From: Psammoneis japonica
Lineage: Eukaryota
Direction: 5' to 3'
NCBI GenBank assembly: GCA_008632985.1
Contig: QPGO01000042.1
Coordinates: 434,001 to 498,000, forward strand
Length of the DNA: 64,000 bases
The notes under the pieces were generated by a model. That model had not been told where the DNA came from. It saw nothing but the letters and a program-made list of their open reading frames with translations, and did not search any database. Shown here one piece after another: positions 4,834-59,438 of this stretch. The position numbers were made by a program, and so were the translations under genes. The number at the start of each line of letters is the position of its first letter. The stretch's first letter is position 1.

Positions 4834-6945
4834 CAACATGTTCCAGCTGAGTGCCAATCACATTGAAAATGTGGCGCTGTGAATGGAGTCAACAACAGGA
4901 CCAGTGGCCCTTGGATCACATTGTTGCACCATTGACTCCAATCAAGTGACAGCCACAGCAATGCATCAAAACCAAAAGAATGCAACCCACTCAATCTTCT
5001 TCTCAAGAGGTTTGAAATCCTTTTGAAAAGTTCCTTGGACAAATGAGTGTGGGAAGAACCAGTGGATCTCACCGTGAAAAATCTGACACAATTCTACAAT
5101 GCGTGAGAACCTTCTCCCATCACAGTCTTTGGTGGCATCCATTTGAAAGAAATTTTTCCAATTGTGAAAGATTGAAGTTTTAAAAATGAAGTTGCTCAGC
5201 ATGGGTTGCTCTGAGACTCATTGTCAAAGGAAAAAGGGTCAAGTTTGACCTTGTCCAACTCTCAGAAGCTCAGCAAAAGGTTCGCACACATGGTGAGCCC
5301 TTTGCTCAACATTCAGCATTTTGTCACCTTTGTAAAAAAAAATTGAACAGACATTCACACAACCAGAAAAGCCACTTTGAAGGCAGACAACCAAAAGTCC
5401 TTCACCGCTTGGCTTGAAACAAACCATCAAGACTTCCACACATGATGGTGTGCACCCAACTGCAAAGAAAATGGAGGCAACTCAGGTGATCACAACACTG
5501 AAAAAAAAAAAAAACAAAGAACATTGCAACATCTTGTCTCAACACACATCGCTGATGTCAAGACATGCAGCCTCAATGATCTCACACACTTCAAGCCAAA
5601 TCCACCTCAACGAAGGTCAAGTGCGGAACAAAAATCTCCAAAAACATGCAGTGCATCATGTCAAAAACTGCACCACCATCATGCCTGAAATTTGGCACTC
5701 ACATCACAACGGAAAAAGAGCTTCTGTCCATGGTGGAAACACTTGGGAAATTCCGGAATGCACTGTTTGGCCAACACTTTGACGTGTGATCTCCTGCACA
5801 CTTCAAGCCAAATCCACCTCAATGAAGGTCAAGTGCAGAACAAAAGTCTCCAAGAACATGGAGTGCATCTCAGTTTGGTTTTGCCGTGTTTTTGAACAAA
5901 AATCCAGGGGATTGCCACCTTTTACCCTGTTTTTCTGTGGAAAGGGTGAATTCCCAGGGAGTTGCCACAAGCTGCCCTTCATCACATGTGCGCTCAATGC
6001 ACGAATAAAAAACAACACATTGGCAATTCCCCGTGCTTCCCCTCTCGTGCATTTCTGCATGTTCTGCATGCCAGCACGTGCGGAGCCACACATCAGATGC
6101 ACAAATCAACAACCGAACAACGCAACAAAAATGGGCAACACGCCATGGAGCATTTGCATCCCATTTGTGACGGCTTTTGTCAAACAATGATGACACTGGT
6201 CAATCCAGTGAACAACATTGTGATCGACAGCACAAAATGTAAAATGAGCAGAAGCTTGACCGATTGCGCTCAGAAAACTGGTGTGTTGATGGATCGTTGC
6301 ACTCACTCTTTTGTTGTGAGGCCACAAATGTGAGCCACGCGGCATCCATGGTGAAGTCCAAGGCAAAAGCAGAACCATGCATGGCTGATAAAAACATGAT
6401 GGATTGAATGGTCTTGCTCAATTTTCCAATTGACACATCTTGTGCGCAGAATGAAGCAAATCATTTAGAGTCACTTTGACGTTGTGCAGCTGCAAATGCA
6501 AACCATGAGGCACCTGGAGTGAAGGCTGAGGAAAAAGCAGAGCCTCACAAGGCTGCTAAAAAAATGGTGGATTGAGTGGTCATGCTCATTCTTTCCTTTG
6601 ACCTGTCTTGTGTGCAGAACACAGTGTGCCATGTGTTCCTTCTTGACAGAATTCTAAGAAGAATTAAAGGTGCATGTCACTCTCTGGCTGAAACATGTGT
6701 GACCATGTACAAAAAGCCTGTCAGTTTGAAGAAAGCGGTAAATGGTTTAGTCGGTAACCGGTTATAAGAGGACCTAGGTTCGATTCCTGGGTATCGCAAT
6801 TTTTCAGGTTGATGGGTCGGATTTAATCGAGTTGGTCAATCTTGTTTAAATCCTGTCATGGTGCGAGGACCGTTGATGATTTGAACCTAGGTGTGTGTGC
6901 TCCTTCAAGATGACTCTAAAACTGAGGAGAGGCTGCGGTGAGACA
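4834..6945 (+). repeat. 2.1-kb direct repeat, copy 1 (copy 2 at 11234-13345)
   Basis: Colinear at an exact offset of 6400 with about 8 substitutions. Includes a gypsy RNase H remnant, a TRIM LTR and the TRIM PBS. Confidence 0.95.
6644..6945 (+). mobile_element. Truncated TRIM copy (5' LTR 6644-6858, PBS, start of internal region)
   Basis: Identical to 13044-13345, including the two TA>CA changes; breaks off at 6945. Confidence 0.9.
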
Positions 6946-8108
6946 AAGAATTCCGCAACGCTTTTCATCGAAAGCGGGACGTAAATCTGTACATTCAGGG
7001 AGGCAAAGTCGTTTGGGAATTTGCATACAGTGCTCTCGTGATCCGTGCAATCAAAGATCATATCAAGGGAAGGGCTTGGAATCCCAGTTTGGGAAGCAAA
7101 GGATGTTGGACGAGTCCTCTGGAGAGTCTCCCCGACGCTATTGCCCTCTACGAGTTTATGGGCCGCAAAGTTGACGAAAAGATGAAGAAGCGAGCAGAAG
7201 AAATTGAACGTACTTTTGGTGGTACACGCGCTTCTGATGGAATCAAGCTCACCCTTCGACTTGCTCTGAAGCAAGAAGTCGATGAAAACCAGGTGAATTC
7301 ATTGGGCTCCATTGATGTCACATTTCTCTACGACGCGCAAGTCGTTTCTGCTATCAAGATGTTGTCACCATTGCAGCGCTCATTCGATCCTCCAACAAAG
7401 ACGTGGAAGGTGGATGTGCTAGCGCTTCCTGACTTCCTCGACCAGATGGAACCGCTTGGGTACAAAAGATCTACTCATCTTGCAGCGGTAGCACAAGCCT
7501 GCTCGGACCTGCAAAAGCTCATGAGTGACTCGCTTAAGTATTCGATGTTGGTCGAACCCGGTCTTGAGGACTACGAGCTAGTTGAGGACGAACCATTAGA
7601 ACCTGTCGCTGTTGAGGACCTTGAGGCGGCGCTCAAAAAGCTGCTTGTGCTGGTAGGCGACAAGTCTCACTCCGCTGGAAAGCTTGATCGGTCCGATTGT
7701 GGGGAAGCGAAAAGACGTCGCCTGTCATCCAATAGCTTTGTCGGTGGTTATTTCGGTGATTTTGACTCCTTTTCTTCGTTTGCCAGGAATCACGTTCGAC
7801 GGTCAAAGGGGAAAAGGTCGAGGGACTCAACCCCAGCCAATTGCGACTGCGGTCAGCCGTGGAAACAAGTTGGTGGGAGGCACGTGTGTCGTTACTTTGG
7901 AACGTTCCATTGTCCTTGTGGCAATCAGTGGACTAGTGCCTATTGTTGGAAGGGCGAAAAACAAGCTTGCAGGAACTGCGACACGGAGAGTCTTCCAGCC
8001 AAAATCGACCCGTTGGACGGACGCCCCCCGATGAACACAGCCGGCGGTCACCACGATTCGGCCAGATGCGCCATGTGCAAGAGACTCGGCTATGATTGCA
8101 GCCTTTAA
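6945..8108 (+). CDS. 5'-truncated protein with two HARP-like repeats and a C-terminal 3CxxC (ZAR1-like) zinc finger
   Basis: Frame is open from the repeat junction (KEFRNAFHRKRDVNLYIQGGKVVWEFAYSALVIRAIKDHIKGRAWNP) with no ATG. Second repeat TFLYDAQVVSAIKMLSPLQRSFDPPTKTWKV. C-terminus YFGTFHCPCGNQWTSAYCW..QACRNC..HHDSARCAMCKRLGYDC. Confidence 0.7.
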   Translation, partial: KEFRNAFHRKRDVNLYIQGGKVVWEFAYSALVIRAIKDHIKGRAWNPSLGSKGCWTSPLESLPDAIALYEFMGRKVDEKMKKRAEEIERTFGGTRASDGIKLTLRLALKQEVDENQVNSLGSIDVTFLYDAQVVSAIKMLSPLQRSFDPPTKTWKVDVLALPDFLDQMEPLGYKRSTHLAAVAQACSDLQKLMSDSLKYSMLVEPGLEDYELVEDEPLEPVAVEDLEAALKKLLVLVGDKSHSAGKLDRSDCGEAKRRRLSSNSFVGGYFGDFDSFSSFARNHVRRSKGKRSRDSTPANCDCGQPWKQVGGRHVCRYFGTFHCPCGNQWTSAYCWKGEKQACRNCDTESLPAKIDPLDGRPPMNTAGGHHDSARCAMCKRLGYDCSL

Positions 8109-8223: not shown

Positions 8224-11208
8224 CTACATTGAGCTCAGCGCTTCCTTTGTCTTTGTAAGGAGAGCCTCGAGCTGACGAACCTCGTCTGGAAGACTTGAGT
8301 CGTCGACATACGCTGCGCGAATCTTTTTCAGGACTCCGCTTATGAGAAACTTACTCTTTGTTAGGCCCTCTTTGCTTGATTTCGATTCGTGGTAATGTGC
8401 GATTTGTGAAACTACTGCGAAAATTTTGTGAACAAGATCCTCTTCCTTCTCCCAACCACCAATAGCCTGAAGTGCACGGTATTCCTTCATGAGGTTTTGA
8501 TACACTTCGTCGTCACGTCCAATCCTGTCATTGAAATACGCAAGTGCTTCCCAGATCCATGGTTCCGTCTTCGAAGTGGAACTTAGGCGATTCAGCAGCT
8601 CGTTGACACGTGAAAGAGTCCGTGCAGATGAGTCTAATGCCGCTGCGTCGCCTTTCGAGGCTATATTTTCATCCAGAGCTCCACCAATAATTGCTCTGAC
8701 ACATCGTTCTTCCAACTGAGGGATCGCGTCGGAAGTCTTCTGGCTTGCTTTCATATCGAGCAGTACGTGACAAGCTTGGATGGCTTCGTCATATTTCTTC
8801 AGATCGATGCAGGTATACAGTTTGCTTTCCCAGACCCGCCAGTTATTTCGGTTCTGCTTCAACGACTGATACAGCAACGATAACAACACCAGCAGAACAG
8901 CAAAGATTAGTCATGCAGATCGTCATGCAGGGAAAAAACAAGACCTGCGCCCGAGTCTTACCTCCACTAACGCAGGGTACGCTTCAGATGGATTCTTGTT
9001 GTGAAGGTGGATAGCTGCCACATTTGCCCAGGCATCAGCCTCTTCGGGTTCTTGCAAGACAACTTCCGAGAAAGCCTTCAGGGCTGTTTCCCATTCCTCG
9101 AGCTGCATGCTAACGGTTCCCAAACGAAACCATACTGCGGGCATCAACGGCTTCACCTTTAGCGCTTTCTTGAAATTATCGGAAGCAGCTCTTAATTCCC
9201 CACGATCAAAATAATACTTTCCTAGCGCAACATACGCACTGGAGAATCTTCCGTTGGACAGCTCCAGAGACTTCTCGTAGTGAGACGGGTCATTCGTTAG
9301 ATCGCCAAGAGCAGCCCACATGCGAGGGGTTTCTGATATGGCCAATCTATCCCTCACTATTTGCTCTGCCTTGCTTTCCTTCCCTGCATGTCGGTAACAT
9401 TCCACAACTTCATCCCATAGCTCAAGTTCTTCAAAAATTTCTGCTGCGCTCGTGACCACTCCAATCTTTGCGCAACGCTCGGCCAAATCACGAAGCATGG
9501 CCCAGCGAGGAGGATAGACTATTGTATGGAGGTTTTGAAGACGCTCTTGAGGGGGCGCCGAATCCTCAACACTTTTAAACGTCGATTGAGTTATGGTCAA
9601 TCGATTCGAGTGCTGATCCGTTAAAGCTTGTATTTGAAGGATCGCTCGTTCACGACCATGTGTCCTTTCGCACTCCAACCACGCTCGTTCCAGCAGAGCC
9701 GTCGAGTATACCATCCAGTCGTCGTGATGTTGCAACACACGCGCCAGATAAGCCGCCATCTGTTCCCCAGTTAGACCATCTTTGGGGTTATTATTCTTTA
9801 CGTCCAAACAAAGTGCCAGAATGATTGCTTGGTCGAGAATGTTCAAATCTTCAATCTGGTTCTCCTTTTCATCGTTGTATTCTATGTTTTCGAGCAGAAT
9901 TTCGTCCTCTCCATGCTCAACCATCTGTTGCTTGATTTGGCTTCTCCTTTCGTCACTACTGGGGGACATATCGTTGGTCTTGGAAGCCTCAGGAGGAGTC
10001 ACAGATTTCGCCCGTACAAGCATCTGCGCCGTAGCTTCTTGTTGAAACTTTGTGCGTTTCCCTTCAGCACCCGTTACTTCGACCACAAGACCAGAGAACT
10101 CCATTGATTTCAAAAACATTGCTTTGCCTTTCCCTTCTCGGTCAAAATGGTGGTTTGCAAGGCCCCACTCAAGCATAATTGCGGCCGCCAGATTCCTCTC
10201 CTGGTAGTGCTTTGTCAGATCCAGTTTTGCCGATTCTACCTCGTCACAGAATGACGCTACACAATTTTGGAACATTGCGTCGACTTCATTCCATAAAGTT
10301 ACCGAGGGATAGCGAGATTGAAGAAGTCTTTGATGGGCGACCGCAGCACGTGCGCTCCACAAATGAGCAACAGCGAGGTGAGCGGAAGCTCTGACAAAGT
10401 CACTTGGTGGCTTCGCTAATGCTTCAGGTTGTTCGGACCCAGAAGAGCTCGTCCAAACTGGGCGATTTGGATCTGCTAATGTCAAAAGTATCGAACGCGC
10501 CAGAAGAAGGAAATATGGAACAAGACATACTTGGCATGGCCACTCTCCATCCACTGTGAGTTCGGACAAGACAGCATTTTGGTATTTTGTATTCATCGTT
10601 GGTCGAGTTGACGTCGCAGCGTTTTCTTCCTTAGAGTCATTTTTCTCTTCTGGCACACACGAATCACATACTGATACTGCAAGCTTATTTTGAAAGCAAT
10701 TGTGCGGGTTGATATCCTTGATTGGGTCCTCGCGGACTTGCGCCGGTGTCATTCCCCAATCGAGCGACGGACCGGTGTAATTTAGCTGAAGAAACAAGTT
10801 CAGCGCTGCCACGCCCAGGAGTTCTACTTCCACACAAGAAGCTACCGAAGAGCAGTACGCGTAGACCGCTTTACGAAGTAGCTGTGGGACACTCTTGTTT
10901 GCATCTTTGTCGATTGCGTCTAGGATTCTTTGCGCGGTTTCTCCCTTGAGAACCTGGGCGTACTGACCAGATGAGATAGACTCACACAATCCTCGAATCC
11001 TTGAAAGACATTCATCCTCATCAACAAGAGACGCTATTTCACACGATGTACTAGCGGTTTGTAAAAGAACAGACCGCTCGAACTCAAGTGCTTTCTTGTC
11101 GATATCACTCAATTCCACGTCGTCGTCGACTGCGGGAGCAGCCTCGTCGAAATTCACTCCAGCAAAATCAATTGCTGCAAAAGCAACGTCGCTATCGTCA
11201 CTAGCCAT
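8224..11208 (-). CDS. TTC27: Tetratricopeptide repeat protein TTC27/Emw1 homolog (exons 11208-8962 and 8865-8224)
   Basis: Motifs LNLFLQLNYTGP, VTGAEGKRTKFQQ, DWMVYSTALLERAWLE, RAILQIQAL and TPRs (WFRLGTVSMQLEEW, AWANVAAI). A GTAAG..CAG intron at 8961-8866 joins ALVE|SLKQNRNNWRVWE in frame. Confidence 0.9.
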
Positions 11209-11233
11209 ATCTGCAATACTTTTGCAGTACACG

Positions 11234-13345
11234 CAACATGTTCCAGCTGAGTGCCAATCACATTGAAAATGTGGCGCTGTGAATGGAGTCAACAACAGGA
11301 CCAGTGGCCCTTGGATCACATTGTTGCACCATTGACTCCAATCAAGTGACAGCCACAGCAATGCATCAAAACCAAAAGAATGCAACCCACTCAATCTTCT
11401 TCTCAAGAGGTTTGAAATCCTTTTGAAAAGTTCCTTGGACAAATGAGTGTGGGAAGAACCAGTGGATCTCACCGTGAAAAATCTGACACAATTCTACAAT
11501 GCGTGAGAACCTTCTCCCACCACAGTCTTTGGTGGCATCCATTTGAAAGAAATTTTTCCAATTGTGAAAGATTGGAGTTTTAAAAATGAAGTTGCTCAGC
11601 ATGGGTTGCTCTGAGACTCATTGTCAAAGGAAAAAGGGTCAAGTTTGACCTTGTCCAACTCTCAGAAGCTCAGCAAAAGGTTCGCACACATGGTGAGCCC
11701 TTTGCTCAACATTCAGCATTTTGTCACCTTTGTAAAAAAAAATTGAACAGACATTCACACAACCAGAAAAGCCACTTTGAAGGCAGACAACCAAAAGTCC
11801 TTCACCGCTTGGCTTGAAACAAACCATCAAGACTTCCACACATGATGGTGTGCACCCAACTGCAAAGAAAATGGAGGCAACTCAGGTGATCACAACACTG
11901 AAAAAAAAAAAAAACAAAGAACATTGCAACATCTTGTCTCAACACACATCGCTGATGTCAAGACATGCAGCCTCAATGATCTCACACACTTCAAGCCAAA
12001 TCCACCTCAACGAAGGTCAAGTGCGGAACAAAAATCTCCAAAAACATGCAGTGCATCATGTCAAAAACTGCACCACCATCATGCCTGAAATTTGGCACTC
12101 ACATCACAACGGAAAAAGAGCTTCTGTCCATGGTGGAAACACTTGGGAAATTCCGGAATGCACTGTTTGGCCAACACTTTGACGTGTGATCTCCTGCACA
12201 CTTCAAGCCAAATGCACCTCAATGAAGGTCAAGTGCAGAACAAAAGTCTCCAAGAACATGGAGTGCATCTCAGTTTGGTTTTGCCGTGTTTTTGAACAAA
12301 AATCCAGGGGATTGCCACCTTTTACCCTGTTTTTCTGTGGAAAGGGTGAATTCCCAGGGAGTTGCCACAAGCTGCCCTTCATCACATGTGCGCTCAATGC
12401 ACGAATAAAAAACAACACATTGGCAATTCCCCGTGCTTCCCCTCTCATACATTTCTGCATGTTCTGCATGCCAGCACGTGCGGAGCCACACATCAGATGC
12501 ACAAATCAACAACCGAACAACGCAGCAAAAATGGGCAACACGCCATGGAGCATTTGCACCCCATTTGTGACGGCTTTTGTCAAACAATGATGACACTGGT
12601 CAATCCAGTGAACAACATTGTGATCGACAGCACAAAATGTAAAATGAGCAGAAGCTTGGCCGATTGCGCTCAGAAAACTGGTGTGTTGATGGATCGTTGC
12701 ACTCACTCTTTTGTTGTGAGGCCACAAATGTGAGCCACGCGGCATCCATGGTGAAGTCCAAGGCAAAAGCAGAACCATGCATGGCTGATAAAAACATGAT
12801 GGATTGAATGGTCTTGCTCAATTTTCCAATTGACACATCTTGTGCGCAGAATGAAGCAAATCATTTAGAGTCACTTTGACGTTGTGCAGCTGCAAATGCA
12901 AACCATGAGGCACCTGGAGTGAAGGCTGAGGAAAAAGCAGAGCCTCACAAGGCTGCTAAAAAAATGGTGGATTGAGTGGTCATGCTCATTCTTTCCTTTG
13001 ACCTGTCTTGTGTGCAGAACACAGTGTGCCATGTGTTCCTTCTTGACAGAATTCTAAGAAGAATTAAAGGTGCATGTCACTCTCTGGCTGAAACATGTGT
13101 GACCATGTACAAAAAGCCTGTCAGTTTGAAGAAAGCGGTAAATGGTTTAGTCGGTAACCGGTTATAAGAGGACCTAGGTTCGATTCCTGGGTATCGCAAT
13201 TTTTCAGGTTGATGGGTCGGATTTAATCGAGTTGGTCAATCTTGTTTAAATCCTGTCATGGTGCGAGGACCGTTGATGATTTGAACCTAGGTGTGTGTGC
13301 TCCTTCAAGATGACTCTAAAACTGAGGAGAGGCTGCGGTGAGACA
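11234..13345 (+). repeat. 2.1-kb direct repeat, copy 2
   Basis: Matches 4834-6945. Confidence 0.95.
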
Positions 13346-13759
13346 GACCGACGATGCACATAGTGCTCTTATTAGGGATGCCGAGGCCGGAATGGCCGCC
13401 CAATTATCAGTTCGCCGGGGAGGTCATGACATGTGCAGAAAAATGTGGCCCAGGTAGAAGGGGAGCTGTGAGAAGTATCATTGTCCAAAGAAAGGAACGT
13501 CAGACAGCTTCGTGACGTCAGACAGCTTCGTGACATATGGGGAGTGACAGAATTCTAAGAAGAATTAAAGGTGTATGTCACTCTCTGGCTGAAACATGTG
13601 TGACTATGTACAAAAAGCCTGTCAGTTTGAAGAAAGCGGTAAATGGTTTAGTCGGTAACCGGTTATAAGAGGACCTAGGTTCGATTCCTGGGTATCGCAA
13701 TTTTTCAGGTTGATGGGTCGGATTTAATCGAGTTGGTCAATCTTGTTTAAATCCTGTCA
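13044..13759 (+). mobile_element. TRIM (non-autonomous miniature LTR retrotransposon), 716 bp
   Basis: 215-bp LTRs at 13044-13258 and 13545-13759 (TGACAG..CTGTCA, 2 mismatches). PBS TGGTGCGAGGACCG at 13259, PPT GGGGAG at 13539-13544, 286-bp non-coding interior with an 18-bp tandem repeat at 13498-13533. Confidence 0.92.
13135..13204 (+). ncRNA. tRNA-like Pol III cassette inside the TRIM LTR (also 6735-6804 and 13636-13705)
   Basis: A-box TGGTTTAGTCGG (13143-13154), B-box GGTTCGATTCC (13177-13187) inside T-arm CTAGG-TTCGATT-CCTGG, acceptor stem GCGGTA/TATCGC plus discriminator A, then a T5 terminator. No canonical anticodon arm. Confidence 0.7.
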
Positions 13760-13761
13760 AA

Positions 13762-14037
13762 TGATAGAAATTGAAGGCAAATGGCAAGAATTCAAACAAC
13801 AACTCCTTACTGCTGTCTAAATAGCAGATGAGTCTCCGCTCAGAGACCGTCACAGGAGCCGAAGGACATGTAAGTCGGTATAATCGGGCTACTGTCATTA
13901 TTCTTGTGAGCCTTGTGGCTCGAAAGCAAACTGCATCGCGCGTGAACGCGCGGAACTGAAGCACACAAAACTGTGCACGGCAAACCAAACAGCACTCGAT
14001 GCTTCGCGCGCACCTGAATCCTGCTCAAATCCTGTCA
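13762..14037 (-). repeat. Copia 3' LTR (276 bp)
   Basis: Aligns with 20595-20853 with 17 substitutions and one 17-bp indel. Confidence 0.95.
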
Positions 14038-14059
14038 CTCCCCAGTTTGCTTGAGGAGC

Positions 14060-17000
14060 CACAGAAACAGATTTGACTTCGGATGGAATGAAGTTCCAGA
14101 ACATGAGGGGGCGGAGAAGGTCCCAGATTTGGGAGCAATTCAGTGCTTGCTGAGAATGTCAGCAGGGTTGCGGGAGCCTTCGATGAAGTGGAGCTCAAGG
14201 TGACCAGAGGCAATTGCCTCACGCACACGGTGGAACGACAGTGCGGTGTGTCGCTTGCGCAACTTGGAGTGCGGGATGGTGGCGCTGTCTGCAGCCGACT
14301 TGTTGTCACCGAACATGCAACCAACATTGCGAGCCGGGACGCCAAGGCAGTGCAGGGTGATGCGCAGGTCGACAATCTGCTCAACACAAGTCCTTGCGGC
14401 AACAAATTCAGACCCGTGGGTCACAGTCTCCACGGTGGCTTGTTTCTCAGAGAACCAATCAGCCGGGAATTTGTTGAGGAAGTGGAGCATTCCCATGACA
14501 GAGCGTCCGGTGAGCATGCAATGGCGCAAGTTTGCATCGATGCAGTGGGTGGCAGCAGCGAACTTGCCAAGGGGCGGCAGAGCGTCCTTCGGGATCATCT
14601 CTTCTGCTTCGCCGTGCACGGAACGCATCCACTCACAGGCCGGAGCAGGGAGATCCGAGTGGCCGGGCTCTTCCGTGCGAACGCGGAGAGCGCCGTGTCG
14701 CATCTTGGAGAGGTGCCCACAGACGCGCTTGGCACGATCCAAGTGGCCTTGACGGGGCGCAGCTCGGAAGCCAGAGAGTGACATGACGGCCGTGGCAATG
14801 TCAACTCGACCAAGGGACACTGCCCATTGGAGTGAACCAACAAGAGACTGGAGCTTGTGGATGCCATCGGGTCCCAGCAGTTCGGAAGTGTCCAGCTCGG
14901 GGTGGCCACCCTTCTCTAGAGGTGACAGGGCGTTGGTGGTGGGTTTCTCCCCAAACAGTCGGGCACAGCTGTCGACCATGCGCTCGATGTGCTTGCGCGG
15001 AGACAGGCACAAGGTTCCGTCGGGTTCCCGGGAAAAGTCGCAACCCAGATGGAACTCAATGGGTCCCGCACCCTTGAGCTTGAACTTGTGCTTTTCCGTG
15101 AGGGTGTCGACGAAAGATTGAGGGTCCTTCATGGCAATGGCGAGGTCACCCACACAAACGGCAATGCACTCACAGTGGTCGCCGTTCCTGCGCATCCAAA
15201 TGTCGGGTTCGGCGCGGCAGGGGAAGAAGCCTTCAGCTCGCAGGCAGTCGGCGAAGCGCTCGTGCCAGCGGAGACCGGAGCTGCGCAGTCCATGCAGTGC
15301 CTTGTGGATGACAAGGATGTGTCCTTCGAGTTTGCCGAACTTGGGTCCAGCTGCAATGTAAAGCTTCTCCTTGGTGGTGGCTTCAAGGCAGGCATTGCCA
15401 ATGTCGGTGGCCCATGTCTCCAACTCGTTGAGTTCGGCCAGGAAAATCATCAGCCGAAGGCCACGGAGGGAGACTGCTCCGGAGCAGACACTGTCGACAG
15501 GCACGTCCGTGAGGTGCCCGTCGGCTGCGAGTCATGCCTTGTGGCGACCGTCGTGTTTCATGTCGCACACCAGGTGCACTCGGATCTTCTTGTGCCCCGC
15601 AGGAGGAGTGGAAGACTTGAAGGGCCCGCAGTCATGGAAGACTTCGCACTCGTCGAGTTGGTCCATCTCGAGATCAGTTGCGTCTCCCCACTTGCGGTTG
15701 CCGTTGCGTTCGTCCAGTGACATGGCGTGTTTGCAGTTCCGGGGAACTTCGCATCCATGCTTGCAGCGAGGTGCAGTGCGGAAGGAGCGAAGCTTGGCTT
15801 GGTTGGCCATGCGAAACAGCTTCTTTTGGCGCCTCGCGATGGTGCGGAACCGCTTCCAGCCATCCGTGTCGAGGAGTCCGTTCTCTCGTGCATGGATGGC
15901 ACAGGTGACGGGGTCGTCCTTGGCGATGATGGCAAGAGGCTCGGACGTGATCTCCCCACTTTCCCGTTCAAGCATGATGTTGTAGCTGGAGCCTTTCCAG
16001 GTTGGGTCGTGAGGCTTCAGAGGTCCTTCGTGTGACACGATGCGTCGAAATTTCCAAACAGCAGTGTCTTCGTCTTCTTGCTCAATGTGATTCATGATGT
16101 CATTGTGGGCAAGGACTTCCTCGCATTCATCATTGTTGACAGAGCAGACGAACTCAGTGAGCTTGGGATTGCCGCTCACTTTCCATTCGTGGTCTTCGAC
16201 GGCCTTGACGATGCGAGCTCTGTGGCGTTGTCCGTCCTCTTGTGGCTGCATGAGGAAGGTGCGTCCAATGATGTCTTGCGGATCGAAAACTGGCATCTTG
16301 GGTGTCCTGATCTCCCCATCAGGAGAGTCGACGGGGTTGTCGTCATGGCGAGATTTGATGATGGGTTCAGGTGGCTCCCCATCAGGAGGATCAAGACGCA
16401 GGTTTCGGACGGCAGGATCGGGGGCAGCGGAGCGGACGTTGGACCGGCAGAGGATCTTCTGATTCTGGTCAGATAGAATCTTGAAGGTCATCTGGTGGCC
16501 GACGTGCTCAGCAATGCCAACGAAGCGTCCACGCAACTCACGGGATTCGGACGGCCAATCGGAGTCATCGAGGTGGAAGCACACGGGTTCCCACCAGTGA
16601 AAGCGAAGCAATGGGCTGATGTCCGGGGTGGAGCCAGTGAGAGTCTCAAGGGGCGTGCGCCAGTGGAGACGTGGGGACGCTGCATGGTTGAGTGTGAAGC
16701 ACACGTGCATGAGCGCCAGCAGCCATGCATGGGCGGGCGAACCAAAACGATCCATGACAGTGTTCGCCATGTGCTTCACGGTCTGGTGTCGACGCTCGGC
16801 AAAGTTTTGGTGTTGCTGGTGAGGCTCACTTTGCCAGCTAGAGATGAAGAGGGCGCGTGGGATCCCGAGCACTTTGTTGCTGATCTCAACTTGAGCACGG
16901 TCGCTAATGAGTTTGGATGGGGCACCACGTTCACGGATCTGATCCTCGAGTGTGTTGACAAACTCTTTGTCCGTCTTGGTGCCGTAGACGTCAGTGACGG

Positions 17001-19653
17001 TAGACTCGGTGCCAACAAACAGCTGGGGACTGGTGCAACCAGAGTCGACGGCCGGGGTGTCGGCACAAACGGTGTCAGTGGCGATGGGCTCGTTGCGGCG
17101 GTGCACATCAAGGGCGGGGTTGGGTGATTTGCAGGCCTTGCGAAGGTGTGCACCGGCGGGCATGCGGGCGCACTGCATGGTGCAGTCAAAAGTACGACGG
17201 ACCGTGTCGGCAGGTGGGAAGCCAAAGCAAGGCCGAAGAGACTCGAAGGGGGGGTCCTTGGGCTGCACAGTGCGCGCCGGAGGTGGAACATCATCGCCCT
17301 GGGGGCCAATCGCATGCAGATGACACTCGTGGAACACGTCGTCGTTCGGAATGAGGTGATCATCGAGGGCGGACGCGTGATCGGCAGACAAGGAAGCGGA
17401 CATGATGGTCTCGTTGACAACGACACGATGACGGCAGTTGCCGCATTCGTCAAACAGGTTGGCAGTGGGATCGTCCTGCAGGTCAGAGATCGCGTCGCAC
17501 CACTGGTCGTCGTCAGTGACAGAGTGATCAAGGACGGAAGGGTCCCATGTGTCATCACCGGTGAGGATGACATGGGGCAGGGTGTCCCATTCGGCGTCAG
17601 TGCAAGGTCGCATGGCAACACAAGGCAGGCCAGCCTTGATGTCAATGGGGATGACATAGCCATCAGGAGTGGCAACATGTTGCAAGCCGTTGGGCACCTT
17701 GACAGAGCGATCGTTGACATCCTGTTTGCACCATTCGAGCTGGCCGCAGGAATGGATGGTCTTGCCCTTGCCCGTGCATGCGCGCTGATGGAGCATGGCG
17801 ATGACGGGACCACGCTGGGTCTCAATGACGGCACCAGCGGTGACAATGGGGATGTCCACCAATTGATGATCGTCAATGCCCTGAACGTCGACTTGGCGAG
17901 AGGTGCGTGCAATGACGCGAACGTCGTCGCCAGCAATGCCGCCGTTGGCCCCACGATCGACTAGAGCGCCAGTGCGTGTGGAGCGATGAGCAGAAGCAGA
18001 GCAAATGACATTGTGGTTGTCAACGCGGCGGTGAGTGCGACCGTCAAGTTCTGTGTCATCTGCAGAAGCTGGCGGGGTAGAGGAAGCGGCGGATGGCCCC
18101 GGTCGACTGGCATTGGGGGCTTGGTTAGGAGACAACAGACGTTGCAGATCACCGGGTGGCAGTGGCTTGCGCTTGGTGAGGTGCGCCAGGATGGGATCAT
18201 CTGAAGTGGCGTCCACATGTGGAGCGGAGTCACCAGAGTCAGCAGGAGTCGTGTTGGACAAGTTGACATCACCGTCACTCCCAAGGCGTTGGTCGTGAAG
18301 GTTGGCCGCAACAGACTCATGGCAGTTGCTGGCTCGCGGGTTGCGGGGAGGTGGACGAGAATGCTCAAGGATGATCGCCTTGGAGGAATCGGGCAACGAA
18401 TCCCAGAGCCGTTGGTGGTCGGGAGGGAGACGTCTCCATTGGACACCGGTGAGGCTGGGACCACGGGTGCAGGCAGCATTGGCTTGAAGGACGTCAACGT
18501 CGCTGTCAATGTCGCAGAACACATCGTCGGACGGTTCCTCGGAGCAGACGTCGTGTGCACATGTGGCGCGTCGGGGAGCTCGAGGTGTCGTCTTGGGTTG
18601 AAACGTGCTGTCGTGCTGAGCTGCGGCGGAGAGGAGCAAGCCACAGCATTGATCGCATGTGAGGCTCTTGCCACTCTGCGCACGATGCTGATCAGCTTGG
18701 TTCTTGACAGCACGGAGTTCCTCGACAGGGTGCACGGCATTCTCGAGCATGACGCGCTTCTGTCCTTCAGAGAAGTGGTCACTGGCCGGGATGAGTGCCT
18801 CGTGCTTGCGCAACTGATCTTGCCAATGAAGGATGAACCCGTGGGTCGGACCTTTCCAAGTGCCATCACCAAGACGCGCGGTGGTGAGGTGCGTGAGCAG
18901 GGTGGAGGACTCGACAGATGCGCGGGTGGAGGCAAGCGCGTGCTCAGACAAGGAGCGGCAGACGGTCTGTGCGTCAGAAGACCCCACATTTTCGCGAATG
19001 AGAGCCTTGCCCTTGTCGGTGAGAAGGATGCGTTCGAAGACGGCGAACATGTGCTTTTGCTGTTCAGCAAAGAGCAGTTTGTCTTCGGGGCTGGTCGGTT
19101 CATACGACGAGTCTAGAATGCACTCGATGTCTTGGGCACGGGCTTGTGCCACAAGTGAGGTGTGCCAAGTGTGCCACTGCTTGTCGGATTTGAGAGCCGT
19201 GAAAGCGGTGGGATCACGCTTGATGCCTCGCTTGAAGTCCCACACCGGGTCGCGTGCCTTGGTCGGGTTGGTGACATGTGGAGGTGCAAGGGGTGAGCTG
19301 CCGATGGACACAGAAGACATGCAGTCGGGGCTGAGGCGGTGGGCAAGGAACTCGTCATGCGTGAACAAAGAGGAGTCATTGGCAACGTCAAGACCTTTGT
19401 GTGCTTTGACAATGTACAGACTGACTGATGCTGCTAACATGTTCTTGTAACCACGGGGCAAAGGGATTGCATTGGTGCCGTTGTCGCACTCAAGCGAGTC
19501 TGTTTGGGACGGCATGAACGTGAACAGTTCCTGACATGAGTCCATGCCGTCTTGGGCCAAAGCCAAATGAAGAGGACTCCCAGCACCTTGGGCAAGCACG
19601 GTTCCAACCACGTGCTCGAAACCATCGGTTTGTTGCTGACGAGTGAGAACCAT
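14060..19653 (-). pseudogene. Copia gag-pol polyprotein pseudogene
   Basis: PR LVDRGANGG; IN ..ISDRAQVE..QNFAERR; RT HLVCDMKHDGRHKA*, KALHGLRSSG, CVGD (for YVDD); RNase H DANL..TGRS..GSEFVAAR..FGDN..NPADILSKH. TGA (from CGA) at ~15532 and a frameshift at ~14140. Confidence 0.93.
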
Positions 19654-20576
19654 GGCAGACAAAGGTGGTGTCAGGACAATCAATTCTGGTTGGGAAGCGA
19701 AGGTAGACTCGAAACTTGGGTGAGAATAGACTTGACTTGAAATGGACTTGACTTGAAATCTTGAACCATCTTAAAATCAGAAGTCGCCGGGCTTTGTCAC
19801 CCCGTTCGTTGTCAAGTGCTAAACTTCCTGTCCGGTCCGCAGAGTTGTGCCGGCACGTCCGAACCCGCAGCTGGTGGCGCTTTGGGTTGCTTGCGAGCGG
19901 AGCAGCGGGTTGCAAACCCCTGCAGGTAAGCTGACCAGAGGTGGACAAGACCCCCGAACCGTTCTCATTTTATGTCGGTTGGATTTCCCGATCAGGCTGG
20001 CCAGTTGACGCAGGCATCAGGCGCTGTGGACGAACGAACAAACGCGGGAAAGCACCCTCGCCCCAACGTAGGCTGCAATCACGGCTGCCTGCTCTCACAG
20101 TCATCCTCGTGGACCTAGCAGAACTGTGGAGCACCAGCAGTCCGGGGTAGATCAGGTGCAATGGACTCGGTGTGCTTGTAGAGTGGTGGCAAAACCGCAG
20201 TCCGAAGAGTGGATAAAGGTTCTTGGCCGTGAAGATATGTATATATATATATATGTCTTCAGCGACTAAGATCCTTGAATATGTAGGGTTCTTGACCGTT
20301 AACCGAGGAATAGGTATATCAAGGGATGTTGATCAAGGATAGACTTGGATATGACCGTTGAACATAAGTCTTCAGCGATCAAAGGTAGCACAATCAATCC
20401 AGATATCCAGCGGTAAGGAGACTTGACGGTGACGTTAACTTCCTGCCGATGCCCTGGTATTGAATGCGCGTAGACTTGCCGATGTATGTAGAATATATAC
20501 GGAGGTCCACGTAGAATTGAAATAGCGTCGTTGGTAAATCAACGACGACGATGGCGGTTGCTCAATGGGTTGACAA

Positions 20577-20594
20577 TGAGCAAGACTGTTAATC
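20577..20594 (-). promoter_or_regulatory. Putative primer-binding site complementary to an internal tRNA-Asn anticodon arm
   Basis: Element strand reads GATTAACAGTCTTGCTCA directly after the 5' LTR, with no TGG. Its complement contains GACTGTTAATC, a tRNA-Asn(GUU) anticodon arm sequence. Confidence 0.5.
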
Positions 20595-20853
20595 TGATAG
20601 AAATTGAAGGCAAATGGCAAGAATTCAAACAACAACTCCTTGCTGCTGTCTAAATGGCAGATGAGTCTCCACTCAGAGACCGTCACAGGAGCCGAAGGAC
20701 GTGCAAGTCGGTGTGATCGGGCTGCTGTCATTGTTCTTGTGAGCCTTGTGGCTCGAAAGCAAACTACATCACTAAAGCACACAAAACTGTGCACGGTAAA
20801 CTAAACAGCGCGCGATGCTTCGCGCGCACCTAAATCCTGTTCAAATCCTGTCA
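20595..20853 (-). repeat. Copia 5' LTR (259 bp)
   Basis: TGATAG..TGTCA on the + strand, followed by the TSD CTTCT. Confidence 0.95.
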
Positions 20854-21254
20854 CTTCTTGTGTGGTGTGGACACAAATGCAAACCACAATGGCGCTGGAG
20901 CAAAGGACAAGGCAAAAATAGAGCCTCACACAAGCAACATTGACGTGGCTGATTTAAAGGCAATGTTTCTTCTTTCCTTGCTCTGCCACAAGGGGGCAAT
21001 TCATGGCTTGGGATAAAAGCACACCCGCCTGACTGCAATTGCCACAGATTGCCGCACTCCATTTGCTTTTTGTTCCCCTCCCCTGAGCCCTTTCAGGCTT
21101 TCCTTCCTGAAACATTACCCTCATTTCCTGGGATTCCATCAAAAGGGCAAGGTGACTCCCCCTCACCCTGGCCATTTTGGGGAATCCCCAAATGGGCAAA
21201 ACCAAGCTGAGGAGTGCATCGTGTCAAAAACTGCACCACCATCATGCCTGAAAT

Positions 21255-21460
21255 TTGGCGTTCACGTCACAACGGAAAAAGAGCTGCTGTCCATGGTGGA
21301 AACACTTGGGAAATTCCGGAATGCACTGTTTGGCCAACACATTGACATGTGCATGGTTCACAAGACACAACAAACACAGAGTCGTGGGTGGGCAAATTGA
21401 TGCAGCACACAACGAGGGCATGGTGAACATTGTCGCAGAAGCATTCAGCCAACTTGCTGT
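21255..21460 (+). pseudogene. Decayed Ty3/gypsy RNase H fragment (further copies near 5700, 12100 and inverted near 22080-22160 and 23430-23510)
   Basis: HVTTEKELLSMVETLGKFRNALFGQ resembles gypsy YTTTEKELLSIVETLKEFRNILFG; GMVNIVAEAFSQL resembles GxxNxVADALSRL. Confidence 0.75.
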
Positions 21461-21787
21461 GAAGAAAATTGAGCCTTTTGAAATCCTGCAACAATGACCT
21501 GCCTTTAAAACAAGACAATGACATTTCCTCCAAATTGCCAGATGCAACACATCTTGCCAACACTTTTCGTGGAGGTGAGCAAGATCAAAAAGTGCTCATG
21601 TCACAAGGACAAAATTGTCTTGTCTGAAGATGCTTTGAAAAAATTGGTGACAGATTGGCACAAAATGCGTGCCCACTTCACACTGGAAAAAAAGACAGTC
21701 TCGCAACACCCGCGCAGTTGCAGTGTAAAATGTGCAAGGCAAGACACAAACAAACAATGTTGCTCTCAAAAGACACTTGGAAATTGG

Positions 21788-23764
21788 AGCATCTTCAGAC
21801 AAGACAATTTTGTCCTTGTGACATGAGCACTTTTTGATCTTGCTCGCCTCCACGAAAAGTGTTGGCAAGATGTGTTGCATCTGGCAATTTGGAGAAAATG
21901 TCATTGTCTTGTTTTAAAGGCAGGTCATTGTTGCAGGATTTCAAAAGGCTCAATTTTCTTCACAGCAAGTTGGCTGAATGCTTCTGCGACAATGTTCGCC
22001 ATGCCCCAGTTGTGTGCTGCATCAATTTGCCCACCCATGACTCTGTTTGTTGTGTCTTGTGAACCACGCACATGTCAATGTGTTGGCCAAACAGTGCGTT
22101 CCAGAATTTCCCAAGTGTTTCCACCATGGACAGCAGCTCTTTTTCCATTGTGACGTGAACGCCAAATTTCAGGCATGATGGTGGTGCAGTTTTTGACACG
22201 ATGCACTCCTCAGTTTGGTTTTGCCCATTTGGGGATTCCCCAAAATGGCCAGGGTGAGGGGGAGTTGCCTTCCCCTTTTGATGGAGTCCCAGGAAATGAG
22301 GGCAATGTTTCAGGAAGGAAAGCCTGAAAGGGCTCAGGGGAGGGGAACAAAAAGCAAATGGAGTGCGGCAATCTGTGGCAATTGCAGTTGGGCGGGTGTG
22401 CTTTTATCCCAAGCCATGAATTGCCCCCTTGTGGCAGAGCAAGGAAAGAAGAAACATTGCCTTTAAATCAGCCACGTTGATGTTGCTTGTGCGAGGCTCC
22501 ATTTTTGCCTTGTCCTTTGCTCCAGTGCCATTGTGATTTGCATTTGTGTCCACGCCACACAAGAAGGAACACATGGCACACTGTGTTCTGCACACAAGAC
22601 AGGTCAAAGGAAAGAAGGAGCATGACCACTCAATCCGCCATTTTTTTAGCAGCCTTGTGAGGTTCCACTTTTTCCTTGGCCTTCATTCTAGATGCCTCAT
22701 GGTTTGCATTTGCTGCTGCACGACATCAAAGTGATTCCAAATGACTTGCTTCATTCTGCACACAAGATGTGTCAATTGGAAAAATGAGCAAGACCATTCA
22801 ATCCATCATGTTTTTATCAGCCATGCACGGTTCTGCTTTTGCCTTGGACTTTACCATGGACGCCGCATGGCTCACATTCGTGACGGCACGAAAAAAAAGA
22901 GTGAGTGCAACGATCCATCAACACACCAGTTTTCTGAACGCAATCTGTCAAGCTTCTGCTCATTTTACATTTTGTGCTGTTGATCACAATGTTGTTCACT
23001 GGATTGACCAGTGTCATCATTGTTTGACAAAAGCCATCACAAATGAGACACGAGCGCTCCATGGCGTGTTGCCCATTTTTGTTGAGTTGTTCGGTTGTTG
23101 ATTTGCGCATCTGATGTGTGGTTCCGTGCGTGCTGGCATGCAGAACACGTAGAAATGTGTGAGAGGGGAAGCACGGGGAATTGCCAATGCATTGTTTTTA
23201 TTCGTGTGTTGAGCACACATGTGACGAAGGGCAGTTTGTGGCAACTCCCTGGGAATTCACCCTTTCCACAGACAAACAGGGTAAAACGTGGCAATCCCGT
23301 GGATTTTTGTTCAAAAACATGGCAAAACCAAACTGAGATGCACTCCATGTTCTTGGAGACTTTTGTTCTGCACTTGACCTTCATTGAGGTGGATTTGGCT
23401 TGAAGTGTGCAGGAGATCACATGTCAATGTGTTGGCCAAACAGTGCATTCCGGAATTTCCCAAGTGTTTCCACCATGGACAGAAGCTCTTTTTCCGTTGT
23501 GACGTGAATGCCAAATTTCAGGCATGATGGTGGTGCAGTTTTTGACATGATGCACTCCATGTTTTTGGAGATTTTTGTTCTGCACTTGACCTTCATTGAG
23601 GTGGATTTGGCTTGAAGTGTGCAGGAGATCATTGAGACTGCATGTCTTGACATCAGCGATGTGTGTTGAGACAAGATGTTGCAATGTTCTTTGTTTTTTT
23701 TTTTTTTTCAGCGTTGTGATCACCTGAGTTGCCTCCATTTTCTTTGCAGTTGGGTGCACACCAT
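21788..23764 (-). repeat. Right arm of a ~2-kb inverted duplication (left arm = 11845-13043 plus 20854-21634)
   Basis: Reverse-complement match with a ~153-bp spacer (21635-21787). Carries the empty LTR insertion site (single AGAAG at 22562-22566). Confidence 0.9.
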
Positions 23765-25776
23765 GGACCACCAGAACGTCTGCACTGCAGTCTTTGCTCC
23801 TGTTGAGTGCGCCTGTGTTGGCCTCTCTGAAAATGATGCAATGGAACAGCGCAGCGTGGAGAACATTGAAGTGCATCATTCATCCTTTGCACTTTCAAGA
23901 AGCAAACAGTGATGACCTGCGGCAGCATCTTTCACTGAGATACAAGCCGCATCAACAGACTGAAGTGATTCGACACGAAACAGATCTCTTTTGATGGAAT
24001 CACATCCGAAGGACTCATTTCCAACAATCTGTGTGTCCATTGTCTTCCAAACTCCCTTGTTGCACTGCCGATCATCCTCAGCACAATCTGAGACTTGAGT
24101 GGAGCATGTCGCATGGCCGTTCAAACCCAAATGCCTTTGCGAAAGTGATTGTGGACAAGATGCCAGAACAGAACATAAGATTTTGTCCTTGTTGGGTGTG
24201 GAATGAGGGTTGCAGCTAACTCAGGTGTTGTGCTGCTGTGTCGCACGCAGGTTCTCGGAATGCACTTTGTTGGTCCCAACACCGTGGGCAGCACATGTGC
24301 ATTTGAGTCTTTTGAGACATTGTTGTGTGCACACATTTGAGCCTTTTGGGGTGTGGCAGGGGGGGGGGCAGTGGCAAGGCTGAAGCTGCAAGCAGAGAGG
24401 GGCAAGCAGCGTGATGCAAGAAAAAGCGAGAGAGGGGGGGATGCTGAGGAGAACAAAGTGCGTGGCCCCTTCAAAAGACTTCCTCAGCCAAATCTGACTG
24501 TGCACTTCAGTGCATCTTGCTGGGTGCAAACCTTTCCTTTGCACCAAACAGGTGGTTGCTGACGTGTGCTGTTGCAACAACAACCTGCCCGGCACTGGCT
24601 GCTTCTGGCGAGCAACCCCACCACGTGTGGGCTTGCAACTTTGCTCCCAAGCATCCAGCTCAATGTTGGAGCCAACGGCACAGCACACACAAGGAAAAAG
24701 ACTTCTCACTCAAGCTCCAGCAAGTGGAGCAAGAACCGCAGCAATGGGAAACTGCCTGCTGAGATGGGGGCAGGGGGGATCCCCAGCATGACCAATCCCT
24801 CCTCTGACTTGCTCACAATTTGTGGGTTTCGCCAATCAACCAAAAATGACAAGACCAGAGAATGCTTTCACAGCTGGCACAAGCTCAGGGAATGACCCCC
24901 TGCACCCTCCCTTGACCAATGAGCACTGCAGTGCAAGGCAAACAAAATGAAGCGCCGCCCCTCAGTGTGCTCTGGACAGCAGCTTCTTGCCAGCTTTGGA
25001 CCTTCAACCAGCCACTTGAAAGGGTGGAGAAACAAGAGCTCTCTCTGAAGCTTGCTCAGTGGCTTGGTGAAAAATTTGGCCAGTTGGCCAGCCAAGACAA
25101 CAACAAACTTTGCTGGAGGGCAGGCCAAGAAGAGCAGGTCTTGGCCTTGCTTGTGTTGATGCTCAGCTCAAATTTGTTTGGAAGAAGAGTTGGAAAGACT
25201 TTGACCCCCCACTGGAGCCACAAAATGCACAAGGTGTGAGCATTGTTGGTCTCCCACTCTTCGTGCCGATGTTTTGTGAGATGGAAGAGATTGGGTGCAT
25301 TGTTCGTAGTGTCAGGTGTGTGAAAATGGAGCCAACTTTTCACAAAGCACCTTTGTCACACACACACACCCCAAAAAACGTGCAAGGGTTCGGTGACAGC
25401 TCCCCAACTAACGCCACTCTCTGTTTGCGACCCAAAAGTTGTCGGGAACTTCGGACTGGCATGGCATTCATTGGTCTGTGAAAATGCATTGTGAAGGGGG
25501 GGTGTTCGACATTCGACACGTGAAACCATGTTGAAGATCGTTAAAAGAACGTTATTCGATGCGTGCTCACGAACAACTACAGTACTGTACTGAAGATACA
25601 CAACAAAACAACACATGTAAATTGAGAAAAGTAACATCGTCTGTACAGAAGCGGCATCATCAAACGATCACAGCATACGGTAGGAACGTCAAGAGCCACA
25701 CTCAATACAGCATTAATCTGTCTGAAGAGATAATCTCCACTGCGTATCTACAATAGTTTCACTCAAAACCAGTCGC

Positions 25777-59430: not shown

Positions 59431-59438
59431 TCAACTGC

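Follow-up and report, generated by a model that had tools for sequence, protein, structure and literature searches.

A Ty1/copia-type retrotransposon lying within a 64-kb stretch of contig QPGO01000042.1 (positions 434,001 to 498,000; hereafter the window, whose own numbering is used throughout) has lost almost every TA dinucleotide from its coding sequence, through changes of TA to TG or CA that are confined to TpA and fall evenly on the two DNA strands. The same signature recurs tract by tract elsewhere in the window, where TA-poor and TA-normal DNA form two separate populations, and it affects a pseudogene array as well as the retrotransposon. In our view the probable cause is a TpA-specific A:T>G:C hypermutation that acts in situ on certain silenced or selfish stretches of the resident nuclear DNA and is of the kind described for integrated viral DNA in the alga Bigelowiella natans (bioRxiv 10.64898/2026.01.13.699255). 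The parts of the element on which the argument rests are these:

14140 to 19683, minus strand: Ty1/copia-type polyprotein frame of 1846 codons, with a match to RVT_2 (Pfam, E 7e-16) and a likely start at ATG 19653
13762 to 14039, minus strand: 3' long terminal repeat (LTR), a 278-bp direct repeat with TG..CA ends
20595 to 20853, minus strand: 5' LTR, with TG..CA ends
13899 to 19704, no strand assigned: TA-poor tract of the element, in which the gaps between successive TAs run from 256 to 1018 bp; it is slightly wider than the interval first noted
15532 to 15534, minus strand: in-frame TGA at a position where relatives carry Arg, a CpG-type C>T change (CGA>TGA) outside the TpA process

An earlier note on this DNA had described the body of the element as nearly free of TA while CG stayed abundant, and the counts agree with that description. 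Between positions 14060 and 19653 (5594 bp) there are 18 TA (observed/expected, o/e, 0.07) and 414 CG (o/e 0.89), TG and CA stand at o/e 1.34 and 1.58, respectively, and the GC content is 58% compared with 44-49% in the flanks. The coding sequence proper holds 18 TA in 5541 nt, against 255 TA in 5556 nt in its closest relative (locus L001), and its GC content has risen from the 53% of that relative to 58.5%. Expressed per kilobase of coding sequence, there are 3.2 TA in the window element and 53 ± 12 (minimum 30) in 28 relatives. Across 80 metagenomic loci of the family the TA o/e is 0.73 ± 0.15 with a minimum of 0.33, these loci being the best 80 of 585 and having been found by one Tyr-containing pattern, which biases the set against mutated copies. 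The loss of TA from the element is confirmed as real and lies far beyond chance. Since a change of TA to TG or CA makes no stop codons and erases TAA and TAG, both of which are nearly absent from all six frames of the coding sequence, the frame has stayed open and long open reading frames (ORFs) run in all six frames. At the 18 surviving TAs, a C stands before the T (read on either strand) in 17 of 36 flanks, compared with 22% in relatives (p ~9e-4). This enrichment of CTA/TAG suggests a wider motif, and it reflects either a refractory context or TAs that were made later by ordinary C>T changes.

The effect on the encoded protein is most visible at tyrosine, whose codons begin with TA and whose scarcity the earlier note had also remarked on. 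Only 7 of the 1846 residues of the polyprotein are Tyr (0.38%), compared with 3.81 ± 0.31% (minimum 2.86%) in 72 relatives longer than 1800 aa, whereas Cys (3.14% against 0.90%) and His (5.20% against 3.55%) are raised above the level of the relatives by about as much as Tyr is missing. When Tyr columns conserved in at least 80% of 24 relatives are considered, 37 of 41 are altered in the window: 18 have become Cys (TGY), 15 His (CAY), 2 Phe, 1 Leu and 1 Arg (CGC, a double hit). Relatives scored in the same manner, one at a time, show 0 to 8 changes in 42 to 44 columns. All of the recoded motifs that had been quoted (KALHGL, CECIAVCVGD, THGSEF, CMFGDN, AHAWLL, SEKQ and KGAGP) are present in the translation. 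The element is dead because the reverse transcriptase (RT) motif YVDD now reads CVGD, and with the loss of 37 of its 41 conserved Tyr residues in addition it is non-functional. The 1383-aa N-terminal part of the polyprotein (15532-19683, minus strand) returned no Pfam match at all, despite its full-length alignment to relatives; the mass loss of Tyr, together with other changes, may have pushed this Gag/protease/integrase part below the Pfam thresholds.

The direction of change was read from a codon alignment of the window frame with the frames of the 28 relatives, taking the consensus of the relatives as the ancestral state. At 1585 conserved nucleotide columns, T>C (40/441) and A>G (36/420) make up 76 of 127 changes, no other class exceeds 9, and the remaining changes are consistent with ordinary divergence within the family. 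Almost all of the ancestral TA dinucleotides in this comparison have gone, 16 of 33 to TG and 14 of 33 to CA, while A>G in other contexts is rare: AA>AG in 2/48, CA>CG in 1/37 and GA>GG in 5/112, or 8/197 for all non-TpA A>G. For T>C outside TpA (TC, TG and TT pooled) the count is 2/75. Control relatives treated alike show 0 to 3 changes in 21 to 36 at TA, and 1 to 11 in about 200 elsewhere. Consistent with this, where an amino-acid replacement requires A>G at the first codon position, a T precedes it in 11 of 13 cases; T makes up 23% of third positions. The direction TA>TG/CA proposed in the earlier note is thus upheld, as it is the relatives that retain Tyr and TA; its further proposal, that a few A>G changes in other contexts (such as GA>GG) belong to the same process, does not hold, since these lie within the range of the controls.

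A 50% consensus gives 95 ancestral TA sites, of which 34 now read TG, 35 CA and 3 CG (both positions hit), with 5 TA retained; the other 18 read TT, TC, CC, GA, GT or CT, and the ancestor is less sure there. Double hits and attack on both strands, which had each been claimed, are therefore both found. Along the copia gene the two products show no significant clustering (33 runs, 35.5 expected) and no trend of TG versus CA. The process is strictly TpA-specific and strand-symmetric. GC skew was considered as a sign of strand bias and discarded, because the closest relative L001 has an equal skew, making it a trait of the lineage. The polarised comparison covers the coding sequence: at the DNA level the 80 metagenomic relatives reach at most 68% identity and none matches the leader or the LTRs, which for that reason have no outside polarisation.

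On the basis of the RVT_2 match, the collinear polyprotein and the flanking LTRs, the element belongs to the Ty1/copia LTR retrotransposons and, among them, to the diatom copia-like group, whose members go by the name CoDi. Over its 454 aa, the RT/RNase H part of the polyprotein shows 63-71% identity with polyproteins from environmental assemblies that are 1840-1940 aa long, and the whole polyprotein is collinear with those of its relatives. The direct-repeat match between the LTRs (13762-14039 and 20595-20855) is 87.8% identical; a search for a target-site duplication around them found none. The 21 bases to the left of the 3' LTR (13741-13761) match the LTR's own 3' end at 18 of 21 positions, and a 215-bp unit at 13545-13759 recurs at 6644-6858 and 13044-13258 (99%), which suggests that an earlier insertion left a remnant here or that two LTRs were joined in tandem. 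A contig joint that skips 13028-20899 was considered as an empty site and rejected as too weak, being a single contig with 29 letters on its shorter side. An exact-sequence cluster look-up returned no entry for the polyprotein or for four host ORFs. A histone deacetylase ORF (51112-52398) shares 83-88% identity with the full-length relatives that score best against it, the named ones among them being diatom sequences, and the window is nuclear DNA of a diatom-like (stramenopile) alga.

The copia element is one of several TA-poor regions. Over 61 one-kb bins of the window, rho(TA) is bimodal, and it is strongly anticorrelated with rho(CA+TG) across bins (r = -0.88):

26 bins with rho(TA) below 0.25: mean rho(TA) 0.06, rho(CG) 0.42 and rho(CA+TG) 1.71
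35 bins with rho(TA) of at least 0.25: mean rho(TA) 0.58, rho(CG) 0.98 and rho(CA+TG) 1.15

Every ORF with a host-type Pfam domain lies in a TA-normal bin (mean 0.58), and so single-copy host-gene DNA does not share the depletion, as the earlier note's hypothesis required. Apart from the element, the TA-poor bins correspond to the following features:

1 to 6240, no strand assigned: repeat block, poor in TA and in places also in CG, interrupted by three runs of N; a portion is duplicated at 11229 to 12640
11228 to 12640, no strand assigned: TA-poor block, recognised by composition
21116 to 25307, no strand assigned: block poor in both TA and CG that contains inverted repeats and weak RT_RNaseH matches at 21017-21397 (plus strand) and 23420-23707 (minus strand), E 0.002-0.009, below the Pfam cut-offs
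34178 to 42940, no strand assigned: 8.8-kb block with TA o/e 0.01-0.11 (1-6 TA per kb) and CG o/e 0.03-0.40, mostly 0.03-0.10
58693 to 61460, no strand assigned: TA-poor, CG-poor block, with no TA at all from 58693 to 60501
58844 to 60012, plus strand: Ran GTPase pseudogene in two tandem broken copies, frameshifted, 72.6% identical to each other (Ras family, E 1.6e-8)

In these older blocks CG has also been lost (o/e 0.03-0.6) and most coding signal has gone. TG and CA each reach an o/e of ~1.6-2.2 in the 8.8-kb block, where a Pfam scan found no recognisable coding domain. Among 116 stop-free ORFs of at least 90 aa in the other TA-free blocks, Pfam detected PT repeats, Ras/Ran and sub-threshold RT_RNaseH, and otherwise only scattered sub-threshold matches (Gly-zipper, A2L zinc ribbon and HTH_3). 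The block at 1-6240 is incompletely assembled, its runs of N lying at 720-1018 (299 bases), 1300-1495 (196) and 2043-2623 (581).

Old repeat pairs, 6-27% diverged, are TA-free in both copies, and even at 27% divergence not one TA is present in 1.8 kb of such copies. Where two adjacent bases differ between the members of such pairs, the difference is CA versus TG in 7/10, 3/4, 2/2, 8/10, 2/2 and 12/27 cases; the pair 1496-1990 and 4708-5202 gives 0/5, and the LTR pair has no adjacent double differences. As far as can be judged from these comparisons, the differences would fit continuing in-place decay of self-complementary dinucleotides. The copia element, in which CG stands at o/e 0.89 while TA has fallen to 0.07, indicates that the TpA process is separate from CpG decay and faster.

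The Ran pseudogene array sits in a TA-free, CG-poor block that adjoins intact host genes. Tyr positions of Ran are Cys or His in the pseudogene copies, with HC and HH where Ran has YY, and one ancestral TAT codon has become TGT (Cys) in copy A and CAT (His) in copy B. Because its Tyr positions read Cys or His, non-transposon sequence is affected too; it is possible that the copies were carried into their block by a transposon.

When TA o/e is followed along the element, from the 5' LTR to the 3' LTR, the affected tract is seen to start and stop within the LTRs themselves:

5' LTR outer half, minus strand: TA o/e 0.69 (5 TA)
20595 to 20740, minus strand: 5' LTR inner, U5-side half, TA o/e 0.20 (2 TA)
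20230 to 20594, minus strand: leader next to the 5' LTR, TA o/e 1.10, part of a high-depth repeat family
19951 to 20229, minus strand: middle of the leader, TA o/e 0.48
19654 to 19950, minus strand: leader next to the ORF, TA o/e 0.31
N-terminal part of the ORF, minus strand: TA o/e 0.18
Body of the ORF, minus strand: TA o/e 0.04-0.08
13900 to 14039, minus strand: 3' LTR inner, U3-side half, TA o/e 0.00 (0 TA, 7.3 expected)
13762 to 13899, minus strand: 3' LTR outer half, TA o/e 0.77 (8 TA)

The leader piece at 20230-20594 contains an intact TA microsatellite (20236-20252, TA(TG)TATATATATATATA(TG)) and short degenerate repeats (GACTTG..., GTCTTCAGCGA...). Between the two LTRs there are 17 differing sites, 12 of which are TA in one LTR and TG or CA in the other. 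In plus-strand order, the first 7 of these 12 are TA in the 3' LTR and the last 5 are TA in the 5' LTR, a reciprocal split which means that each LTR has been mutated only in its element-internal half. That the LTRs differ weighs against RNA editing before integration, which would give matching LTRs.

Other copies of the element were compared through contigs from four runs of one sample mapped to 13000-21500; the sample may be the source sample of the window, and summed contig depth does not equal copy number. With 14,046 pieces in run X1 this is a very large family, and summed depth is 39,000-189,000 over 13568-20951, against ~800-1000 and 2900-5700 on the flanks. Among the best 40 of 565 rows, the differences between genomic copies are nearly all transitions, and copies show TA, TG or CA at the same sites. 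At 15089-90, a Tyr codon that reads His in the window, about 55% of the contig depth is His, ~45% Cys and ~0.2% Tyr; at 18803-4 all of the depth is Cys, and at 14991 97% is Tyr. The Tyr codons compared are Tyr in 23-27 of the 28 relatives. Alternative products, and intact TA, in other copies point to independent hits on resident DNA. Together with the reciprocal LTR differences and the differing Ran copies they lend indirect support to mutation of resident DNA, in line with the earlier note's view that the process acts at the DNA level.

Its view that repeats as such are the target, in a kind of reverse repeat-induced point mutation (RIP), fares less well. The high-depth segments 13568-13851 and 20384-20594 (leader) keep their TA, and the TA-normal parts of the high-copy element comprise the outer LTR halves, the leader at 20230-20594 and the repeat at 13545-13759. 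The window also holds a large recent duplication:

4830 to 6945 and 11229 to 13345, no strand assigned: 2.1-kb direct duplication, 99.6% identical with 8 differences, the copies 6.4 kb apart

This duplication brackets a zinc-ribbon ORF (7158-8108) and a tetratricopeptide repeat gene (8923-11208). Its last 300 bp are TA-normal, with 14 TA in each copy, and 1 of the 8 differences is of the TA type, the duplication being perhaps too young. As high-copy and duplicated parts are TA-normal, copy number alone is probably not the trigger.

Similar signatures, less advanced, occur in the environment. Over 19 conserved Tyr columns, 3 of 120 shorter environmental copia relatives carry the Tyr>Cys/His signature: P0297 at 11 columns (6 Cys, 5 His), P0256 at 7 (4 Cys, 3 His) and P0302 at 6 (all His). 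The other 117 have Cys or His at no more than 2 of the columns, and no Tyr-poor member was found among 120 longer relatives. The DNA that encodes P0302 (L063, 461-1975) has a TA o/e of 0.33 and an open frame of 505 codons; on its sense strand, ancestral TA has become CA at 7 sites and TG at 1, and is kept at 7.

In situ hypermutation has to be weighed chiefly against editing during retrotransposition, in which an adenosine deaminase would act on element RNA (TA>TG) and on minus-strand cDNA (TA>CA) before integration, as an adenine counterpart of APOBEC3, with repeated cycles in dead copies mobilised in trans. Several points count against hypermutation of resident DNA, and some of them speak for this alternative. 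Retroviral reverse transcription leaves its cDNA single-stranded along a gradient of exposure, and TA loss, which grows across the leader (1.10, 0.48, 0.31), is stronger in the N-terminal part (0.18) and strongest in the 3' body (0.04-0.08), resembles such a gradient and has its direction. The mutated state is discontinuous, as the leader at 20230-20594 is TA-normal yet has TA-poor sequence on either side of it, in the body and in the inner half of the 5' LTR. The environmental relative L063, with 7 CA to 1 TG, is strand-biased. Sites at which nearly all of the depth carries one product imply copying after mutation or shared descent, and not only independent hits, as if mutated copies had multiplied. 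High-copy sequence and the 99.6% identical 2.1-kb duplication escape. In the absence of a target-site duplication the two LTRs may not be original partners, and their reciprocal half-by-half pattern could also have come from recombination, or from gene conversion, in which a mutated copy met an unmutated one. The two Ran copies are separated by only one clear and two probable TA-derived differences, five others being CpG-derived. Finally, the available part of the B. natans preprint describes TadA/ADAT-type enzymes as primarily RNA editors (bioRxiv 10.64898/2026.01.13.699255). Editing before integration, however, should leave the LTRs of a new insertion matching, whereas the 12 TA-type differences here are split reciprocally between them. 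Nor does it account readily for TG being as frequent as CA with no trend along the gene, for tandem Ran copies that carry different products at one Tyr codon after a DNA-level duplication, or for blocks of 4-9 kb, composed of several unrelated repeats, that are uniformly TA-free. In B. natans, moreover, the process is reported to act on resident single-copy DNA during mitotic growth (bioRxiv 10.64898/2026.01.13.699255, available part). On this evidence we regard editing during retrotransposition as unlikely.

The same targeting could also operate with another chemistry, which we think quite unlikely: the thymine of TpA might be modified (for example by oxidation to 5-hydroxymethyluracil through a TET/JBP-type enzyme) and then turned into C by mispairing or faulty repair, or the changes might arise in an error-prone repair patch. 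T>C is A>G on the opposite strand and TpA is self-complementary, so the 34:35 ratio fits a change at either base, and the wider motif suggested by the 17 of 36 C-flanks at surviving TAs does not tell which base is the target. In dinoflagellates, 5-hydroxymethyluracil has been proposed to favour TpA. Error-prone synthesis of the Pol eta type, however, predicts WA>WG, a spectrum that is not matched here, as AA>AG is found in 2/48 and TA>TG/CA in ~30/33, and the sole published case proposes adenine deamination, albeit without a direct test there (bioRxiv 10.64898/2026.01.13.699255, available part). That there was no hypermutation at all, and that the pattern comes from selection against TA (UpA) in RNA or codons, from GC-biased gene conversion or from an assembly or base-calling artefact, is very improbable. 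A moderate TA deficit is normal (0.58 in the normal bins, 0.73 in relatives) and the GC content of the element does exceed that of its flanks, but selection fails to account for the disappearance of Tyr from 37 of 41 conserved columns, the roughly even split between Cys and His and the broken RT active site; GC-biased conversion is not dinucleotide-specific, yet non-TpA A>G amounts to 8/197; and the GC skew is common to L001 and so belongs to the lineage. With regard to artefact, the sized gaps of 299, 196 and 581 N may be read as those of a scaffolded read assembly, and contigs from public runs, which perhaps derive from the source sample, contain both this stretch and related copies with TA, TG and CA at the same sites.

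Returning to hypermutation in situ as the preferred explanation, we infer from the pattern as a whole an action on resident DNA, and with it a chemistry, an enzyme, a targeting cue and a role in defence that might take the following form. Almost every TA in an affected tract would become TG or CA, depending on which strand's adenine is hit, in a process that would run much faster than CpG decay. As the most likely chemistry, a deaminase with a requirement for a 5' T, like enzymes of the TadA/ADAT2 fold, would convert adenine into hypoxanthine, a base that reads as G. The earlier note had named two candidate mutators, a deaminase of this type and Pol eta; the spectrum (TA >> AA, CA, GA) favours the 5'-T-requiring deaminase, and the AA>AG count of 2/48 speaks against Pol eta. 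A Pfam scan of 16 host ORFs of the window found no deaminase domain among them. Recruitment would be through chromatin state or small RNA and not through copy number alone. Mass Tyr>Cys/His replacement, with other missense changes, would then destroy coding capacity while the reading frame stays open. More tentatively, one may imagine a widespread and ancient genome defence of algae of the SAR group (diatoms and chlorarachniophytes), and not a peculiarity of a single species, in which a guided DNA adenine deaminase works on silenced selfish DNA, faster than decay of 5-methylcytosine (5mC), for as long as the region is marked; we hold this broader scheme to be possible but doubtful. Under such a scheme the stretch rewritten in this copia, which begins in the U5-side half of one LTR (5') and reaches into the U3-side half of the other (3'), would cover roughly what the element transcribes, and guidance by the element's own RNA would fit. 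The environmental relatives at 30-60% conversion, one of them converted on a single strand, would be snapshots of single events.

If hypermutation in situ is correct, the window represents a second, distantly related algal lineage with a TpA-specific A:T>G:C process that has so far appeared in one 2026 preprint, and it would display the end state of that process, in which entire families of transposons and arrays of pseudogenes have lost their TA. The process would then be a counterpart, general to eukaryotes, of defence by RIP and by APOBEC-type enzymes, its chemistry being the opposite of theirs, and a natural A-to-G enzyme for nuclear DNA with a strict 5'-T rule would be of interest for understanding base-editing enzymes. 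There is also a practical consequence for annotation. A process that makes no stops and eliminates TAA and TAG leaves dead elements with long uninterrupted ORFs in all six frames, which gene finders will annotate as genes. The TpA process raises local GC content, and combined with CpG decay it offers a simple compositional marker of silenced DNA in diatom genomes.

Among known systems, fungal RIP is alike in that it floods tracts of resident DNA, repeated or selfish, with transitions that ruin them and leave a dinucleotide signature. RIP in ascomycetes is duplication-dependent and changes C to T, mostly CpA>TpA, thereby making TA and stop codons and lowering GC content. Here TA is destroyed, no stops are made, GC content rises (53% to 58.5%) and duplicated or high-copy segments escape; RIP is thus rejected as the agent, its direction being opposite to the loss of TA and the near absence of TAA/TAG in six frames. 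Many diatoms possess DNMT4 enzymes related to the fungal RIP factor RID, according to the part of that study consulted (PMC9998398). A cytosine methyltransferase-like enzyme nevertheless leaves A:T>G:C changes unexplained.

The ADAR and APOBEC3 systems share with the present case a deaminase-driven flood of transitions that becomes fixed in retroelement copies, and ADAR favours a 5' U. ADAR edits RNA with a loose neighbour preference, so that sense-strand A>G is inherited and both LTRs match, and APOBEC3 makes C>U. In the window the hits are shared equally by the two strands, a 5' T is all but obligatory, the two LTRs are unlike each other, and the mutated DNA includes an array that is not a retroelement. 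RNA hyper-editing of the ADAR type is rejected on the sense-strand TG:CA ratio of 34:35 and on the 12 TA-type sites at which the LTRs differ, and APOBEC-type editing is ruled out by the base changed. Decay of 5mC at CpG is similar in another way, as it too converts a self-complementary dinucleotide to TG or CA on either strand in silenced repeats, and it has acted in the same blocks (CG o/e 0.03-0.6); it differs in acting on CG and not on TA, and in creating stops, such as the CGA>TGA change at 15532.

The closest parallel is the TpA-restricted hypermutation of integrated DNA of nucleocytoplasmic large DNA viruses and virophages in B. natans, a chlorarachniophyte of the Rhizaria (Mettrop et al., April 2026, bioRxiv 10.64898/2026.01.13.699255). 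The statements that follow are from the available part of that preprint, in which diatoms and stramenopiles receive no mention. Two integrated viral regions acquired 231 single-nucleotide mutations in mutation-accumulation lines, and 230 of these were A>G or T>C, all at TpA; the rate was ~1000-fold above that of the rest of the genome, and some lines only were affected. The larger viral region is single-copy and transcriptionally silent with a Rho TpA of 0.45, RT and DDE domains are enriched among TpA-poor coding sequences, and an ADAT2-like deaminase was proposed without a test there. The preprint means that TpA-only hypermutation as such is no longer undescribed. The earlier note knew of no description of it in diatoms, and no report of TpA hypermutation in diatoms was found in the literature searched, which did not extend to subscription-journal papers. 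The two cases agree in that A>G and T>C occur at TpA only and give TpG and CpA, with TpA depressed and CpA+TpG raised as the long-term result, and in that discrete regions of selfish DNA are hit while the rest is normal (here 26 versus 35 bins of one 64-kb window). They differ in that new mutations were measured directly in B. natans, whereas the evidence here is comparative alone. The main target there is a single-copy, silent viral insertion that is partly depleted; here an LTR retrotransposon family is hit, together with repeats that resist classification and the Ran array, and depletion has come near to saturation (o/e 0.01-0.1).

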